Notes: generated from the letters alone by a model not told the origin. Shown: positions 2,402-61,593, numbered from the stretch's first letter. The stretch: DNA of 64,000 nucleotides from Escherichia coli (GCF_003790525.1 NZ_CP033635.1), one strand, 5' to 3'. Translations and numbers: made by a program.

Positions 2402-2521
2402 TGCCTGGCGGCCGTAGCGCGGTGGTCCCACCTGACCCCATGCCGAACTCAGAAGTGAAACGCCGTAGCGCCGATGGTAGTGTGGGGTCTCCCCATGCGA
2501 GAGTAGGGAACTGCCAGGCAT
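2402..2521 (+). rRNA. rrfG: 5S ribosomal RNA
   Basis: 120-nt sequence TGCCTGGCGGCCGTAGCGCGGTGGTCCCACCTGACCCCATGCCGAACTCAGAAGTGAAACGCCGTAGCGCCGATGGTAGTGTGGGGTCTCCCCATGCGAGAGTAGGGAACTGCCAGGCAT matches E. coli 5S rRNA; follows the 23S 3' end after a ~92-nt spacer. Confidence 0.97.
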
Positions 2522-2533
2522 CAAATTAAGCAG

Positions 2534-2561
2534 AAGGCCATCCGTCAGGATGGCCTTTTTG
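2534..2561 (+). terminator. rrn operon rho-independent terminator
   Basis: AGGCCATCC-GTCA-GGATGGCCT hairpin followed by TTTTTG, immediately after the 5S rRNA. Confidence 0.85.
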
Positions 2562-2580
2562 CATTGGTGCAGAAAAAAAT

Positions 2581-2612
2581 GCCTGATGCGATGCTGCGCG
2601 TCTTATACTCCC
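2581..2612. repeat. degenerate REP-like sequence
   Basis: GCCTGATGCGATGCTGCGCGTCTTATAC resembles the 5' two-thirds of the REP consensus (GCCTGATGCGACGCT...CGCGTCTTATCAGGCC) but lacks the 3' arm. Confidence 0.3.
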
Positions 2613-2843
2613 ACATATGCCAGATTCAGCAACGGATACGGTTTCCCCAACTTGCCTACTTCCATACGTGTCCTCCTTACCAGAAATTTATCCTTAAGCT
2701 CCTCAATAACCATTTTCCTGCTAACTAAATTCATGGTTAAGGTTGCATAATGATACGCAACAAATGTATAACATTTTTTTACCAAAAAAAATAAACAACA
2801 GCGACTGACAAAAGCATCGGATTACGGCAGGAGACATAATGGC

Positions 2844-4142
2844 ATGGCTGAAAGTACTGTAACGGCAGACAGCAAACTGACAAGTAGTGATACTCGTCGC
2901 CGCATTTGGGCGATTGTGGGGGCCTCTTCAGGTAATCTGGTCGAGTGGTTCGATTTCTATGTCTACTCGTTCTGTTCACTCTACTTTGCCCACATCTTCT
3001 TCCCTTCCGGGAACACGACGACTCAACTACTACAAACAGCAGGTGTTTTTGCTGCGGGATTTCTGATGCGCCCAATAGGCGGTTGGCTATTTGGCCGCAT
3101 AGCCGATAAACATGGTCGCAAAAAATCGATGCTATTATCGGTGTGTATGATGTGTTTCGGCTCACTGGTTATCGCCTGTTTGCCAGGCTACGAAACAATC
3201 GGTACCTGGGCTCCGGCATTATTGCTTCTTGCTCGTTTATTCCAGGGATTATCCGTTGGCGGAGAATATGGCACCAGCGCCACCTATATGAGTGAAGTTG
3301 CCGTTGAAGGGCGCAAAGGTTTTTACGCATCATTTCAGTATGTGACGTTGATCGGCGGGCAACTGCTAGCTCTACTGGTTGTCGTGGTTTTACAACACAC
3401 CATGGAAGACGCTGCACTCAGAGAGTGGGGATGGCGTATTCCTTTCGCGTTAGGAGCTGTGTTAGCTGTTGTGGCGTTGTGGTTACGTCGTCAGTTAGAT
3501 GAAACTTCACAACAAGAAACGCGCGCTTTAAAAGAAGCTGGATCTCTGAAAGGATTATGGCGCAATCGCCGTGCATTCATCATGGTTCTCGGTTTTACCG
3601 CTGCGGGCTCCCTTTGTTTCTATACCTTCACCACTTATATGCAGAAGTATCTGGTAAATACTGCGGGAATGCATGCCAACGTGGCGAGTGGCATTATGAC
3701 TGCCGCATTGTTTGTATTCATGCTTATTCAACCACTCATTGGCGCGCTGTCGGATAAGATTGGTCGCCGTACCTCAATGTTATGTTTCGGTTCGCTGGCA
3801 GCCATTTTTACCGTTCCTATTCTCTCAGCATTGCAGAACGTTTCCTCGCCTTATGCCGCTTTTGGTCTGGTGATGTGCGCCCTGCTGATAGTGAGTTTTT
3901 ATACTTCAATCAGTGGAATACTGAAGGCTGAGATGTTCCCGGCACAGGTTCGCGCATTAGGCGTTGGTCTGTCATATGCGGTCGCCAATGCTATATTTGG
4001 TGGGTCGGCGGAGTACGTAGCGTTGTCGCTGAAATCAATAGGAATGGAAACAGCCTTCTTCTGGTATGTGACCTTGATGGCCGTGGTGGCGTTTCTGGTT
4101 TCACTAACATTGCACCGTAAAGGAAAAGGGATGCGGCTTTAG
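2844..4142 (+). CDS. kgtP: alpha-ketoglutarate:H+ symporter (MFS)
   Basis: 432-aa [46 protein letters not shown]...; multi-pass membrane protein of the sugar-transporter MFS type; length and N-terminus match KgtP. Confidence 0.95.
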
Positions 4143-4462
4143 TGACGAGTCAGTTGCCAGACGGTATAGCCGGTGCTTGCACCGGCGATATCCCAGGCAA
4201 AATCCTTCCAGCTCCAGCCGCTCCCCTCAGGGCGGCTATCCCAAAGCTCTTTTGACGCCCCCAGACTGACAGAGAACATCAATCCAAACATGGCACTGCG
4301 ATCCCGGCTCATCCCCTGATGCTGTGCATATTCATTTCCGGCGGCGGAAAGCATCGCCGAGGCGATAAAGTGTTGAGCTTTATCCTGCCCGCTCCAGCTA
4401 TCGTTAGCCATATGGCTGCATCCAGAAAGTAACAATAGCGAGCAGACAAAAAGAATACGCAA
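4139..4462 (-). CDS. yfiM: small lipoprotein of unknown function
   Basis: ORF-track ORF is 114 aa (4139-4483). I favour the in-frame TTG 7 codons in (107 aa), because the pssA terminator hairpin at 4472-4503 overlaps the longer start. Signal peptide with lipobox LLSGC. Convergent with kgtP, overlapping its 3' end by 4 bp. Confidence 0.8.
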
Positions 4463-4471
4463 AACGTGGCC

Positions 4472-4503
4472 TCCAAAAAACAAACCCCGTACAGGACGGG
4501 GTT
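4472..4503 (-). terminator. rho-independent terminator downstream of pssA
   Basis: On the minus strand AACCCCGTcctgtACGGGGTT hairpin followed by TGTTTTTTGG; lies 5 nt after the pssA stop. Confidence 0.7.
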
Positions 4504-4507
4504 GTGA

Positions 4508-5863
4508 TTACAGGATGCGGCTAATTAATCGGTCGATGCGGATACGGCGCAAACGACGGATGAGTTTACGAACCTTCACCGGATAATCGGCAATACTTTG
4601 CAGATCGCGATAGTGCTTAACGATGGTGGTATGCTCGCGGATCAGCTCCAGTTCTTTCTCTCGCTGTGGCGCAAGCTCCAGTTGCGGATCGTGGATCAAA
4701 ATGGCGTTTTCCAGATCCAGACGCCAGGCGCGCGGGTTCAGGTTATTACCGGTGATCAACATCCACTTATCATCAACCCACATCCCTTTCAGGTGATAGG
4801 TGTTGTCGTCATCTTTCCATAACCGAACCACTAATTGGTCAGTATTGACGTAATACTGCAAACGGCTCAGGAAACGACGCAGATTGATCTCATAGAGATA
4901 AGGCAATGCGCCAATTATCTTGAAAGGTTCATCTTCCGGAATGTAGAAGTCATTCGCGGTTTTATCACCAACAATAATTTCGACCTTTTTCCCTTCGCGC
5001 AGCAACTGGATAATATTGCGCACAAGGATTGCTGGCAGGTTGAAGTAAGGTGTGCAGATGGTTAGTTTCTGCTCGGCACAAGGCATAAGATGGAAAATAG
5101 TCTTGTTCAACAGACTCGATTTCCCCAGCCCCACTAGCGGCGTTACGGAAAGCTGATCGTTGTCGGCATCGCCCTGGAAATGATAAGCGGCATCACGCAG
5201 CTCCTGGCGGAACAGGCGAATGTCGTTCTTGATTTCCGGGCTTTTTGGCCGATTAACATCATCCAGACGATTAACGCCGCGGCCATTCATAATATTCTGT
5301 GTAACCCATTCAAACATAATGTCTGACATCTTACGGTTACGGATCAGATGATAACGGTCGTAGCGATATTTATCGTGCTGATGCAGGTAAACATCGTTCA
5401 GGCTGGCACCGCTATAAAGTACGCTATCGTCGATGATAAAGCCTTTAAAGTGCAGAACACCAAGGGCTTCACGGGTATTGATTGGAACGCCATAAACCGG
5501 AACATCTACGCCCGGATTTTCCTGCGCCATGCGGCAGTACCAGTCAGCGTTAGTGTTAGATGCCGCAGCGCCAATGCGTCCACGTTGTGCACGATGCCAG
5601 TCGACCAGCACCCGCACATCCAGTTCCGGACGCTGCCTTTTAGCCTCATACAACGCGTTCAGAATGCCTTTGCCACCGTCATCCTGTTCGAGATACAGGG
5701 CGACAATGCAAATGCGCTGCTTCGCGCTGGCTATTTTTTCCAGCAGCGTCTCCCGGAAGTCGGCGGGAGCGTAAAAGAAATCGACATCATCAACTGATTG
5801 AGAAATCTTGGGTAGTTGGGCAAGGTGTTGTTGATGTTTATTACGCTTAAATTTTGACAACAT
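4508..5863 (-). CDS. pssA: CDP-diacylglycerol-serine O-phosphatidyltransferase (phosphatidylserine synthase)
   Basis: 451 aa from the second Met of the 452-aa ORF (MLSKFKRNKHQQHLAQLPKISQ...); two HxK-type phospholipase-D-like segments (LHFKGFIID..., HLKGMWVDD...). Confidence 0.95.
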   Translation of the reverse strand: MLSKFKRNKHQQHLAQLPKISQSVDDVDFFYAPADFRETLLEKIASAKQRICIVALYLEQDDGGKGILNALYEAKRQRPELDVRVLVDWHRAQRGRIGAAASNTNADWYCRMAQENPGVDVPVYGVPINTREALGVLHFKGFIIDDSVLYSGASLNDVYLHQHDKYRYDRYHLIRNRKMSDIMFEWVTQNIMNGRGVNRLDDVNRPKSPEIKNDIRLFRQELRDAAYHFQGDADNDQLSVTPLVGLGKSSLLNKTIFHLMPCAEQKLTICTPYFNLPAILVRNIIQLLREGKKVEIIVGDKTANDFYIPEDEPFKIIGALPYLYEINLRRFLSRLQYYVNTDQLVVRLWKDDDNTYHLKGMWVDDKWMLITGNNLNPRAWRLDLENAILIHDPQLELAPQREKELELIREHTTIVKHYRDLQSIADYPVKVRKLIRRLRRIRIDRLISRIL

Positions 5864-5976
5864 CACAGTGCATTTCTTCTCTGTTCATTGAAGGGTCCTC
5901 TGTGCAATGCAGACGACATAAGCGGGCAATAATAACACCAGTCCCGATTAAGTGGTCAACATTTCCAGTACCTTAC

Positions 5977-8637
5977 TCATGATTCCTCGCGCTGGGCAAG
6001 ATTTAGCGTAAGCCCAACGATCCCCTCTTCGAGCTGGATATCAACGTTAAACCCGAGCTTGCGGGCCAGCGCCACCATGCCACGATTGTTTGGCATCGTA
6101 ATACCATTCAGACGTTGCAGTCCGTGATCTCGCGTATAGGTAATCAACTTTTCCATTAAGCGTCGACCTAAGCCTAACCCTTTGAGATCCGAGCGAACCA
6201 GCACGGCAAATTCGGCATCGATGTTATCAGGGTCGGAGATCGCACGCGTGACGCCGAGGATCTCTTCCGTTTGATCAATACGTCGTACCGCTACAAATGC
6301 CATTTCCCGATCGTAGTCGATCTGCGTCATGTTGGCTAAATCTTCATGGGTAAATTCGTTGATCTCGCTAAAGTAGCGGTAATAAAGATCTTCTTTGGTG
6401 ACTCGCGAAATGAACTGCTGAAGTTGTGGCTCATCTTCTGGCAAAATCGGGCGGAACAAGCAGCGTTCACCGTTTTTCAATTCTACCCACTCTTCCAGCT
6501 GATGCGGATAAGGGCGCACTGCCAGCCGGCTCTCGTTATCGCCTTCAAACGGCGCGATATCCAGCGTGACATCCAGCGCGGTAAATTCACTGCCAGAAGC
6601 CAGCAAAGGATGAATATCCAGACGTTGAATTTCCGGACAATCGACAATCAAGTTGGAAACCTGTACCAGAAGCTGGCTCAAGCCTGCAACATCCAATGGG
6701 CGTAGCGCACTGCGCGCACGAATCTTTTTACTTTTGATCCCCTGAATAACCAGATAGCGGGCCAGGTTCATGTTCAGCGGTGGTAACGCGACGACGGCTT
6801 GATCTTCAGGACGCCACTCCACACCGCCTTCGCCCAGCATGATCAACGGCCCGAAAACCGGATCGTGCTCAACCACAACCCGCAACTCCTGAGCGCCAGC
6901 ACGGTTAGCCATACTTTGCACCAACAGGCCGTGGATCCGCGCCTGCGGCCAGGCCATTTTTACGCGATCGAAAATAGCGTTTGCCGCTTGCTGGACTTCA
7001 TTAGCTGTACGCAGGTAGAGCATGACGCCCTGAACTTCCGATTTATGTGGAATATCCGGCGAACGCAATTTCAGCGCCACCGGATAACCAATCTGTTCGG
7101 CAATATGCACCGCTTCGGTGCTATCGCTGGCAATCCAGGTGGGGAGCGTGTTCATGCCATATGCTTGCAGGATGGGCTGAACTTCATGGGTATCGAGTGA
7201 CGTTGCTCCTTCGGCAATCGCCTGTTGCAACAGAAGATGCGCTTCTGCGGTATTGGAGGTCAGATTGCTGGGCAACGCCGGCGTTTCGCGTAGTTGCTTC
7301 TGATTACGCCGGTACTCCACCATATGCATAAAAGCAGTGATGGTTCCTTCCGGCGTGCGATAGGTCGGCAGCCCGGCTTCACTGAATAATCGTCGTGCCT
7401 CTTGCGAGGAGTGCTCGCCACACCAGTTCGTCAGCAGAGAAACATACTTGCTGCGGGGATGATGCTTTACCGCTTCAATTAATGCTTGCGCGCTTTCTGT
7501 TGCGGGAGCAGCGGCGCTGGGCGAATGAATAACCATCAGCGCGTCAAAATCCTGGCTGTGGAGCAGGATATCCAGCGTTTTAATATAGTGCTCACTGCTG
7601 GCGTCATCGCGTAGATCGAGCGGGTTAGAGATTGCCACATGTTCTGGCAGTGCATCGCGCAGTTTCTGGCAGGTTTCTTCGCTTAGCGTTGCCAGCTTGC
7701 CATTGCGTGACCATAAGGCATCCAGCGCCAGCGCGGCAGGCGCAGCACCGTTGCTGATAATCATCAACCGGTCACCACGCAGCGGGCGCATATGGCTAAG
7801 GGTTTCCACCGCCGAAAACAGTTCGTGGGTATCCTGTACCCGCAACAAACCGGCACGCTGAATAGCCGCATCCCACGCTGGATCCATTCCTGCCGTGGTG
7901 TTCAACAGACGTTGAGCCGCCGGGCTACGTCCGCTTTTAATCACCAGAATCGGTTTATTGCGCGAGGCACTACGGGCCGCCGAAACAAAGCGTCGCGCGT
8001 CGCTTAACTGTTCGAGATAGAGCAGGATGGCGCTGGTTTTACTGTCGCGCGCCAGATAGTCGAGCAATTCATCAACGTCGATATCCAGGCTGTCGCCGAG
8101 CGCAATAAAGTAGGAAAAGCCCATCTCACGCTGTTGCGCCCAGTCGAGGATGGTGTTGGAGACAGCAGCCGATTGCGAAATAAACGCCAGCTTGCCGCGT
8201 TTAATCGGCACAGGCGAAAAGCTGGCATTCAGACCTTGCCAGGGAGCCAGTAAACCCAGACTGTTTGGTCCAAGCAGGCGCATGTTATGGCGCAGGGCGC
8301 AGGCGCGGAGATCTTCGTGTTGCGATGACGGGGCGGAAAGAATAATGCAGGTTTTACAGCCTTTCTCGCCGAGCTCTTCCAGAAGAGCAAGATTACGGCT
8401 GGCATTGGTACATAAAACCGCAAGGTCTGGTGTAAAGGGCAAGCTGGCAATATCCGGCCAGGCCAACACACCCAACACTGCTTTCCAGGCAGGCGTCACC
8501 GGGAGTACCGGTCCGTTAAAGCCTCCCGCCAGCAGGTTACGCATCATCAGGTAACCTGCGCGATTGGGTTTCATCGATGCGCCAATTACCGCAATCGATT
8601 TTGGTCGCAGTAGTGCTTCCAGTCCTCGCTGACTCAT
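5977..8637 (-). CDS. patZ: protein lysine acetyltransferase (NDP-forming acyl-CoA synthetase-like N-terminus plus C-terminal GNAT)
   Basis: 886-aa ORF MSQRGLEALLRPKSIAVIGASMKPNRAGY...; CoA-binding Rossmann start, C-terminal GNAT-like segment (...RGLGLGRRLMEKLITYTRDHG...). Confidence 0.93.
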   Translation of the reverse strand: MSQRGLEALLRPKSIAVIGASMKPNRAGYLMMRNLLAGGFNGPVLPVTPAWKAVLGVLAWPDIASLPFTPDLAVLCTNASRNLALLEELGEKGCKTCIILSAPSSQHEDLRACALRHNMRLLGPNSLGLLAPWQGLNASFSPVPIKRGKLAFISQSAAVSNTILDWAQQREMGFSYFIALGDSLDIDVDELLDYLARDSKTSAILLYLEQLSDARRFVSAARSASRNKPILVIKSGRSPAAQRLLNTTAGMDPAWDAAIQRAGLLRVQDTHELFSAVETLSHMRPLRGDRLMIISNGAAPAALALDALWSRNGKLATLSEETCQKLRDALPEHVAISNPLDLRDDASSEHYIKTLDILLHSQDFDALMVIHSPSAAAPATESAQALIEAVKHHPRSKYVSLLTNWCGEHSSQEARRLFSEAGLPTYRTPEGTITAFMHMVEYRRNQKQLRETPALPSNLTSNTAEAHLLLQQAIAEGATSLDTHEVQPILQAYGMNTLPTWIASDSTEAVHIAEQIGYPVALKLRSPDIPHKSEVQGVMLYLRTANEVQQAANAIFDRVKMAWPQARIHGLLVQSMANRAGAQELRVVVEHDPVFGPLIMLGEGGVEWRPEDQAVVALPPLNMNLARYLVIQGIKSKKIRARSALRPLDVAGLSQLLVQVSNLIVDCPEIQRLDIHPLLASGSEFTALDVTLDIAPFEGDNESRLAVRPYPHQLEEWVELKNGERCLFRPILPEDEPQLQQFISRVTKEDLYYRYFSEINEFTHEDLANMTQIDYDREMAFVAVRRIDQTEEILGVTRAISDPDNIDAEFAVLVRSDLKGLGLGRRLMEKLITYTRDHGLQRLNGITMPNNRGMVALARKLGFNVDIQLEEGIVGLTLNLAQREES

Positions 8638-60453: not shown

Positions 60454-61593
60454 ATGGTTTTGCAATCCACGCGCTGGTTGGCGCTCGGCTATTTCACATA
60501 CTTTTTTAGTTACGGCATTTTTCTACCTTTCTGGAGCGTCTGGCTTAAAGGTATTGGTTTAACGCCAGAAACCATCGGCCTGTTATTGGGGGCGGGTCTG
60601 GTTGCCCGTTTCCTCGGGAGTTTGCTCATCGCGCCCCGCGTCAGCGATCCTTCCCGCCTGATTTCCGCCTTGCGCGTGCTGGCACTGCTGACACTTCTCT
60701 TTGCTGTCGCCTTCTGGGCGGGGGCGCACGTAGCGTGGCTGATGCTGGTGATGATTGGCTTTAACCTCTTTTTCTCACCGCTGGTACCGTTGACCGATGC
60801 ACTGGCGAATACGTGGCAAAAGCAGTTCCCGCTTGATTACGGCAAAGTGAGACTGTGGGGCTCGGTAGCGTTTGTCATTGGCTCGGCGCTGACGGGCAAA
60901 CTGGTCAGTATGTTTGATTATCGGGTGATCCTCGCGCTGTTGACGTTGGGCGTGGCATCCATGCTGCTCGGCTTTCTCATCCGTCCGACGATTCAGCCAC
61001 AAGGGGCAAGCCGCCAGCAGGAGAGCACCGGTTGGTCTGCGTGGTTGGCGTTGGTTCGCCAGAACTGGCGCTTTCTGGCCTGCGTTTGTTTATTGCAGGG
61101 GGCACATGCGGCCTATTACGGTTTTAGCGCCATTTACTGGCAGGCAGCTGGCTACTCGGCCTCGGCGGTGGGCTATTTGTGGTCGCTGGGCGTGGTGGCA
61201 GAAGTCATTATCTTTGCGCTGAGTAATAAGCTTTTCCGCCGTTGTAGCGCCCGTGATATGTTGCTGATCTCGGCAGTATGTGGGGTATTGCGTTGGGGAA
61301 TTATGGGGGCAACCACTGAGCTACTGTGGTTGATTATGGTGCAAATTTTGCATTGCGGCACCTTCACCGTGTGCCATCTGACCGCTATGCGCTACATTGC
61401 TGCTCGCCAGGGTAGCGAAGTCATCCGTTTACAGGCGGTTTACTCTGCCGTCGCGATGGGCGGCAGTATCGCCATCATGACCGTTTTCGCCGGTTTCCTG
61501 TATCAATATCTCGGCCACGGCGTGTTCTGGGTGATGGCGCTGGTGGCGCTTCCGGCAATGTTTTTGCGCCCGAAAGTTGTTCCCTCATGCTGA
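60454..61593 (+). CDS. hcaT: MFS transporter (putative 3-phenylpropionate transporter)
   Basis: 379-aa polytopic membrane ORF; 3' end overlaps the convergent csiE by 9 bp. Confidence 0.9.
   Translation: MVLQSTRWLALGYFTYFFSYGIFLPFWSVWLKGIGLTPETIGLLLGAGLVARFLGSLLIAPRVSDPSRLISALRVLALLTLLFAVAFWAGAHVAWLMLVMIGFNLFFSPLVPLTDALANTWQKQFPLDYGKVRLWGSVAFVIGSALTGKLVSMFDYRVILALLTLGVASMLLGFLIRPTIQPQGASRQQESTGWSAWLALVRQNWRFLACVCLLQGAHAAYYGFSAIYWQAAGYSASAVGYLWSLGVVAEVIIFALSNKLFRRCSARDMLLISAVCGVLRWGIMGATTELLWLIMVQILHCGTFTVCHLTAMRYIAARQGSEVIRLQAVYSAVAMGGSIAIMTVFAGFLYQYLGHGVFWVMALVALPAMFLRPKVVPSC

Follow-up and report, generated by a model that had tools for sequence, protein, structure and literature searches.

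The four-base convergent overlap of kgtP and yfiM in Escherichia coli and the 3' ends of kgtP transcripts within yfiM

Background

Bidirectional intrinsic terminators placed between convergent genes, reportedly described by Ju et al. in 2019, solve the same problem that is posed at the junction of the kgtP and yfiM genes of Escherichia coli, namely that two convergent transcription units have to be ended within little space. The kgtP/yfiM junction differs from them in that it lacks both intergenic space and a hairpin with flanking runs of A and T.

Overlaps between convergent genes have been described as a class by Lillo and Krakauer (2007, Biol Direct), who counted 58 of them in E. coli and reported that the distribution of overlap lengths jumps at 4, owing to the tetranucleotides CTAA, TTAA, CTAG and TTAG (PMC2174442). 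In genes with such YTAR overlaps a rho-independent terminator must fall within coding sequence and is seldom to be expected (PMC2174442). The kgtP/yfiM pair has exactly the same configuration and is not categorically different from the members of this class. What it adds to the earlier description is the retention of a spacing of -4 or 0-8 bp in 72 species, with all the four tetranucleotides represented.

Rho-dependent termination has been described by Dar and Sorek (2018, NAR) as diffuse and located downstream, with PNPase and RNase II trimming the RNA back to a stem-loop that is not followed by a U tract (PMC6061677). The sequence with an excess of C over G comes after this protective stem-loop (PMC6061677). 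The 3' region of kgtP likewise has a stem-loop free of a U tract, an end just past it, an excess of C over G and a read-through that is sensitive to the Rho inhibitor bicyclomycin (BCM). Unlike the intergenic 3' UTRs of that study (PMC6061677), the stem-loops and the C-rich stretch of kgtP are the antisense of the codons of another gene, and one of the three kgtP ends (4224) departs from the pattern in lying within a stem.

Convergent pairs with overlapping transcripts have also been catalogued with ExcludonFinder (NAR 2025), in which a listing means that overlap of the transcripts is seen in half or more of 58 MG1655 transcriptomes (PMC12288877). The yfiM-kgtP pair is itself among the 165 convergent pairs listed for MG1655 and is alike to the other convergent excludons in its overlapping transcription (PMC12288877); this membership rests on RNA-seq coverage only, the hallmark of the excludon being mutual exclusion through interference or RNase III. 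The overlap of kgtP and yfiM is present in every annotation, its class dates from 2007, and the kgtP 3' ends and the transcriptional overlap of the pair are contained in supplementary datasets of 2021 and 2025.

The junction of kgtP and yfiM

The stretch of DNA considered in the current analysis, referred to as the window, is 64,000 nucleotides long, and all positions are counted from its first letter. Its bases 2500-6000 are 100% identical to those of E. coli SMS-3-5 and other strains, and the RefSeq annotation of SMS-3-5 has been used as the source of matching coordinates. Along the + strand the order of genes, obtained from the list of open reading frames (ORFs) and the annotation, is the end of the rrnG operon, kgtP, yfiM, pssA and patZ. 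The features that make up the junction are as follows.

2844-4142, + strand: kgtP coding sequence, alpha-ketoglutarate:H+ symporter, 432 aa (ORF list; SMS-3-5 RefSeq)
4139-4462, - strand: yfiM coding sequence, DUF2279/YfiM-family lipoprotein, 107 aa (ORF list; RefSeq; Pfam; periodicity)
4139-4142, both strands: TTAG common to both coding sequences, stop codons included (sequence; RefSeq; alignment)
4508-5863, - strand: pssA coding sequence, phosphatidylserine synthase, upstream of yfiM and co-directional with it (ORF list; RefSeq)

The stop codon of kgtP is TAG at 4140-4142 on the + strand and that of yfiM is TAA, the complement of 4141-4139, so that the TTAG at 4139-4142 is read as TAG for kgtP on one strand and as TAA for yfiM on the other. 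The junction is a 4-bp convergent stop-to-stop overlap of the YTAR class, in which two protein-coding genes meet tail to tail. The first-pass annotation of the window had reported that kgtP and yfiM converge with a 4-bp overlap at these positions, and this has been confirmed by the sequence, the ORFs and the RefSeq annotation. As the stops share four bases, no terminator can be fitted between the two genes. The KgtP protein has matches to the Pfam families MFS_1 and Sugar_tr.

An identical 4-bp overlap is annotated in SMS-3-5, K-12 C600, MG1655 (yfiM, 2724128..2724451; kgtP, 2724448..2725746), O157:H7 and two divergent strains. The TTAG is unchanged across the alignment of these E. coli strains and the stop codon of yfiM stands unrevised in all the annotations examined. 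Among 5426 complete E. coli genomes, the region is present in all but one (5425). Most of them share only 93.6-96% identity with the window over 561 bp, the value for K-12 MG1655 being about 96%.

The 3' end of kgtP contains a patch (window 4103-4136) in which the SMS-3-5 lineage has 12 differences in 34 nt from K-12 and O157, resulting in a single amino-acid change (T versus M). The yfiM gene also diverges among E. coli strains in a mosaic fashion, in the window region 4170-4310. From the sequence comparison it looks as if recombination tracts meet at the kgtP/yfiM junction.

Conservation and commonness of the overlap

A scan for YfiM with one genome per species has provided 80 loci. In 72 of them, all from species of Enterobacteriaceae, kgtP is the convergent neighbour of yfiM. 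A YTAR tetranucleotide is common to both stops in 52 of these 72 species, with CTAA, CTAG, TTAG and TTAA each represented among the 72, and the stops lie 0-8 bp apart in the remaining 20. Space for a terminator between kgtP and yfiM has not been found in any of the 72 species, and the non-overlapping convergent pairs of the same 64-kb window are mostly 32-63 bp apart. By these comparisons the junction is old and stably conserved.

In six further species a gene of the DUF4385 family replaces kgtP opposite yfiM and lies -4 to +17 bp from its stop. The DUF4385 genes (loci L043, L050, L052, L054, L056 and L083) are situated just past yfiM, at about 3318-3342, and their hosts include Atlantibacter, Silvania, 'Escherichia sp. 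ESNIH1' and one Citrobacter freundii. The tight packing at the yfiM stop is independent of kgtP, because the DUF4385 genes are placed equally close to it.

Eleven convergent junctions are present in the 64-kb window, of which four are overlapping and two are 4-bp YTAR overlaps. Apart from kgtP/yfiM the overlapping junctions are the following, and all three of them are also found in the ExcludonFinder list (PMC12288877).

31056-31059, convergent: mltF/tadA overlap of 4 bp, TTAA
16371-16386, convergent: nadB/trmN(yfiC) overlap of 16 bp
61585-61593, convergent: csiE/hcaT overlap of 9 bp

The kgtP/yfiM overlap is not a rare one, since the 4-bp YTAR overlap is the commonest among convergent overlaps and occurs twice in the 11 junctions of the window.

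yfiM as a protein-coding gene

The annotated start of yfiM is a TTG at 4462-4460, which gives a protein of 107 aa; the longest ORF call carries the gene out to another TTG at 4483 (114 aa). A ribosome-binding sequence precedes the annotated TTG.

4460-4474, - strand: yfiM ribosome-binding site GGAGG (4474-4470), 7-nt spacer and TTG start (4462-4460) (sequence; annotated start)

The GGAG and the start codon are conserved across species. In total 411 homologues of YfiM have been identified; among the matches listed they are mostly of 106-111 aa, span many genera of Enterobacteriaceae, with 107 aa in most of this family, and nearly all have a full-length match to Pfam DUF2279. The protein has a lipobox, LSGC. 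The YfiM clade has been assigned to the Lipocone superfamily (PMC12419801). Burroughs et al. (2025) have described a conserved five-gene operon that contains a gene of the YfiM-1 family along with those for a thioredoxin, a DTW-domain enzyme, an acyl-CoA ligase/GNAT/ATP-grasp protein and a PssA-like synthase (PMC12419801). The counterparts in E. coli are trxC, tapT, patZ, pssA and yfiM.

The last 37 codons of yfiM, compared in 72 rows, are 69% identical at the third position versus 93% at the first and 98% at the second, and the position of the stop is the same in 72 of 74 aligned sequences. The three-base periodicity is strong comparative evidence that yfiM is coding right up to its stop. There would be no true overlap if yfiM were an artefact of annotation or ended elsewhere, as might be suspected from its non-ATG start, from its weak transcription and from the fact that the function of YfiM has not been shown experimentally. 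The large number of homologues with DUF2279 matches, the fixed stop, the periodicity in the frame of yfiM that reaches it, the lipobox and GGAGG sequence, and the prior description of the family as a clade of the Lipocone superfamily leave hardly any room for such an interpretation. The homologues, the fixed stop and the periodicity effectively rule it out.

In E. coli HCP5S3_I4 (L004:1640-2644) yfiM is truncated by IS100, with its 3' 159 bp remaining beside an intact kgtP. This strain is a natural yfiM knockout, and the part of yfiM that it retains carries both the stem-loops of the kgtP 3' UTR (HP1 and HP2) that are described below.

3' ends of kgtP transcripts and their dependence on Rho

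The 3' ends of MG1655 transcripts have been mapped by Term-seq by Adams et al. (2021, eLife; PMC7815308). All the experimental data considered here are from K-12 MG1655, which shares about 96% identity with the window over 561 bp. MG1655 coordinates (x) have been converted by the relation window = 4142 + (2724448 - x), which was checked on the MG1655 annotation, and the 3' end has been taken as position 51 of the sequence strings printed in the tables of Adams et al., which was also checked. Three ends are reported on the kgtP strand, one in each growth-condition sheet, and each of them is classed as 'antisense yfiM' (PMC7815308, Supplementary file 1).

4193 (MG1655 2724397), + strand: kgtP mRNA 3' end, 51 nt past the stop; 128,177 reads in the second sheet (PMC7815308)
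4224 (MG1655 2724366), + strand: kgtP mRNA 3' end, 82 nt past the stop; 228,703 reads, LB OD 0.4 (PMC7815308)
4241 (MG1655 2724349), + strand: kgtP mRNA 3' end, 99 nt past the stop; 109,832 reads, third sheet (PMC7815308)

All three ends are located within yfiM, past the stop of kgtP and outside its coding sequence. It had been proposed in the first-pass annotation that transcription of kgtP necessarily extends antisense into yfiM, and the Term-seq ends together with the excludon listing bear this out. The corresponding run of yfiM transcripts into kgtP, proposed at the same time, would be expected from the arrangement of the two genes.

A Rho-dependent termination region on the kgtP strand has a score of 18.97 (p = 8.7e-91), with 576 reads upstream and 24 downstream without BCM and 1045 and 826 with BCM (PMC7815308). 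The region peaks at MG1655 2723742, about window 4848, antisense to pssA (PMC7815308, Supplementary file 2), and the termination zone is only roughly placed by this coordinate, the score being a coarse one computed over 800-nt windows. An antisense promoter, and not kgtP, could be the source of some of the signal antisense to pssA. Literature specific to the locus that describes kgtP as Rho-dependent or as antisense has not been found; a RIL-seq paper has kgtP solely as a target of sRNA.

Stem-loops and C-rich stretches in the kgtP 3' UTR

Folding of the RNA downstream of the kgtP stop has revealed two stem-loops.

4169-4186, + strand: HP1 of the kgtP 3' UTR, GCCGGUG-CUUG-CACCGGC, without a U tract; antisense to the yfiM codons A-G-A-S-T-G (folding)
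4216-4237, + strand: HP2 of the kgtP 3' UTR, 8 pairs in the window and 9 in K-12 (AGCCGCUCC-CUUC-GGGGCGGCU), without a U tract (folding)

The bases after HP1 are GAUAUCC (GACAUCC in K-12) and those after HP2 are AUCCCAAAG, neither of which is a U tract. The end at 4193 is 7 nt past HP1 and that at 4241 is 4 nt past HP2. The end at 4224, which is the commonest one in LB at OD 0.4, coincides with the final base of the 5' arm of HP2 and departs from what a trimming model predicts.

In an alignment of 74 sequences the stem of HP1 can be formed in 79% of the cells and that of HP2 in 92%. Considering both, the positions are paired in 85.8% of the cells versus 27-50% in slid controls and 85.5% in shuffles. 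The covariation analysis of the same sequences gives HP1 and HP2 no support beyond that expected from coding conservation, with 3 compensatory cells, and natural E. coli variants have mismatches that weaken HP1 (GCCAGTAGTTGCACCGGC). As the pairing equals the shuffled expectation, it does not support the view that HP1 and HP2 are selected for as RNA structures. The yfiM codons behind the stems are themselves conserved (A-G-A-x-T-G and the G-S-G...R-P region), and the stem-loops are probably by-products of the YfiM protein sequence.

The kgtP-sense RNA of this region is rich in C and poor in G, and a second C-rich stretch is present further downstream.

4173-4340, + strand: C-rich, G-poor kgtP-sense RNA; C/G of 1.6-2.1 in 78-nt windows, 92nd-99th percentile of the 64 kb
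4713-4850, + strand: further C-rich stretch of the kgtP strand, lying antisense to pssA; adjoins the peak Rho-score coordinate of about 4848

From its composition the first stretch is a candidate rut-like region for the loading of Rho. Over the 200 nt past the stops in 72 species the median C/G is 1.40 on the kgtP side and 1.46 on the yfiM side; as controls, the remainder of antisense kgtP has 1.14 and antisense pssA has 0.96. Within the window, the C/G ratio directly after each of the two stops ranks in the top few percent. The antisense RNA owes its richness in C partly to the amino acids of which the encoded proteins are composed.

A consensus scan of both strands of the window has not identified any intrinsic terminator-like site downstream of either stop. 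Within 700 nt past each stop in the 72 species there is no conserved intrinsic terminator and only scattered weak matches are seen. A recurrent match at about +345 is the terminator of pssA read backwards, which has a T-rich tail in few genera and not in E. coli. An intrinsic or bidirectional terminator serving kgtP or yfiM has been considered and rejected, as no hairpin with a U tract is present downstream of the stops. The suggestion that neither gene has a private terminator therefore holds for intrinsic, intergenic terminators. It does not hold in a wider sense for kgtP, which has signals for 3'-end formation of its own lying antisense in yfiM and pssA, namely the two stem-loops, the stretch rich in C and a region of strong Rho-dependent termination.

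HP1, HP2 or both might also be non-canonical factor-independent terminators of kgtP hidden within yfiM, with Rho only clearing the read-through. The placing of the ends 4193 and 4241 at an intrinsic-like spacing from stable GC-rich stems is consistent with this, as is the high proportion of cells in which the stems are formable, and the possible existence of mixed or transitional terminators has been noted by Dar and Sorek (PMC6061677). We nevertheless consider such termination very unlikely: the consensus scan calls neither stem-loop and neither has a U tract after it, the stems lack covariation and HP1 is mismatched in natural variants, and the read-through is strongly sensitive to BCM, the ratio of downstream to upstream reads changing from 24/576 to 826/1045.

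The pssA terminator and the transcription of yfiM

On the strand of yfiM, the intergenic region upstream of the gene is occupied by the terminator of pssA, which is the sole convincing intrinsic terminator that the consensus scan gives for this region.

4473-4503, - strand: intrinsic terminator of pssA, stem-loop AACCCCGUCCUGUACGGGGUU with UGUUUUUUGG after it (consensus scan)

The stem covers 4503-4483 and is followed by TGTTTTTTGG in the consensus scan. A terminator hairpin of pssA at 4472-4503 just upstream of yfiM had been noticed earlier, and the scan agrees in placing it directly before the yfiM ribosome-binding site. The terminator is kept in 57 species, with pair-preserving changes on both sides at 3 of 7 pairs, and an invariant T run followed by the ribosome-binding site of yfiM is found in every species examined. 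The layout of pssA, intrinsic terminator, yfiM, shared stops and kgtP is thus a conserved one. The terminator is one-directional in E. coli, since GTGATT comes next on the kgtP strand. A few genera, including Kluyvera, have a T-rich tail of this hairpin on the opposite strand as well, which suggests that it might be bidirectional there.

No promoter-like site has been found near yfiM by the consensus scan, the nearest match (5038-5010) being within pssA, and yfiM may be expressed only by read-through of the pssA terminator. A Rho-sensitive region on the yfiM strand is centred at this terminator (MG1655 2724116, about window 4474; Rho score 3.05), with 179 reads upstream and 30 downstream without BCM and 90 and 46 with BCM (Adams et al., PMC7815308). 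From these counts and their shift with BCM, only about one-sixth of the pssA-level coverage goes on into yfiM and beyond, and Rho accounts for a part of the stopping downstream of pssA.

No 3' end in the sense of yfiM is reported in the Term-seq data of Adams et al. (PMC7815308). Folding of the RNA past the yfiM stop has given nothing significant, with z of about 0 both in the window and in K-12. The region is nevertheless C-rich.

3941-4138, - strand: C-rich, G-poor yfiM-sense RNA directly past the yfiM stop, antisense to the 3' end of kgtP; C/G of 1.4-1.96

By its composition this stretch is a candidate for the loading of Rho on the yfiM read-through.

Proposed mode of 3'-end formation

We hold it to be highly probable that kgtP/yfiM is an ordinary tight convergent junction at which the 3' end of each gene is formed within its partner, with Rho and trimming responsible for that of kgtP. 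RNA polymerase runs past the stop of kgtP and copies the antisense strand of yfiM. The read-through RNA so produced is untranslated and rich in C, and Rho could load on it and end transcription diffusely in the region antisense to yfiM and pssA. Exonucleases acting in the 3'-to-5' direction would then cut the RNA back to HP1 and HP2, giving the steady-state ends 51-99 nt past the stop. The yfiM gene, being the last of the conserved patZ-pssA-yfiM string, would receive only the read-through of the pssA intrinsic terminator. Its transcripts probably end within the C-rich sequence antisense to the 3' end of kgtP, either by Rho or by collision with the polymerases coming from kgtP. The data show the overlap and its conservation, the absence of intrinsic terminators, the 3' ends of kgtP and the dependence on Rho on the kgtP strand; the trimming by exonucleases, the loading of Rho at the C-rich stretch and all that concerns the 3' end of yfiM are inferred from them.

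On this account kgtP provides a worked example of how a 3' end can be formed without intergenic space by means of Rho and stem-loops borrowed from the codons of the partner gene.

A possible regulatory role of the overlap

The location of the kgtP 3' ends within yfiM and the entry of the pair in the ExcludonFinder core list agree with the definition of an excludon as a pair of convergent transcripts that overlap. A functional excludon would go beyond this. The 3' UTR of kgtP and its read-through RNA would be a dedicated antisense regulator of yfiM, possibly also vice versa; high transcription of kgtP would lower YfiM by interference or by cleavage of the duplex by RNase III, and the zero-gap junction would have been selected for. 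Apart from the core-set membership (PMC12288877) and the ends within yfiM, this possibility draws on the coverage of the kgtP strand, which is about 20 times that downstream of pssA (576 vs 30 reads), and on the presence of the zero-gap junction in 72 of the 72 species sampled.

Several observations speak against it. Purifying selection on two stops and two C-termini explains the conservation of the junction, 20 of the species have gaps of 0-8 bp and the six with a DUF4385 partner are equally close. The pssA terminator upstream already accounts for the low level of yfiM RNA. The stable 3' UTR of kgtP spans just the last 17-33 codons of yfiM, and the pair is one of 165 such pairs of E. coli, most of which are without a known function (PMC12288877). 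A search for literature linking the expression of kgtP and yfiM, including that in rnc mutants, has not found any. A functional excludon is in our opinion unlikely, and the chance that the overlap of the two transcripts regulates anything at all appears to be small. A reciprocal version, in which the role of the kgtP 3' UTR as a built-in antisense regulator maintains the zero-gap junction and the stem-loops encoded by yfiM in turn set the stability of the kgtP mRNA, is likewise unlikely.

If such a role were true, high transcription of the alpha-ketoglutarate transporter would shut off YfiM, a member of the Lipocone family, through duplex formation or polymerase collision. Carbon uptake and the lipid chemistry of the envelope would then be coupled reciprocally through a shared sequence.

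The junction as a site of integration

The 'yfiM-kgtP intergenic region' serves as the chromosomal integration site for synthetic operons in two recent papers. Because no intergenic region exists, an insertion at 4139-4142 cuts kgtP off from its stem-loops and its Rho region. Unless it duplicates the four bases, such an insertion also alters one or both of the C-termini or stops.

Other 3' ends near kgtP

The Term-seq data of Adams et al. also contain abundant 3' ends internal to the kgtP ORF, one of them at MG1655 2725589, about window 3001 on the + strand and 157 nt into the ORF, which is seen in all the three growth conditions with 105,000-193,000 reads and a Rho score below 1 (PMC7815308). 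A second internal end is reported in the third sheet at MG1655 2725142, about window 3448 on the + strand (PMC7815308). These ends may represent an attenuation or processing site in the 5' coding region of kgtP.

A small protein, YfiS (b4783), is annotated in MG1655 in the interval that separates kgtP from rrfG, on the opposite strand from kgtP, corresponding to window 2603-2665 on the - strand. A Term-seq end classed as 'antisense rrfG' (MG1655 2726060) is present on the strand of YfiS at the hairpin of the rrnG terminator (window 2535-2560), which suggests that this hairpin acts in both directions.
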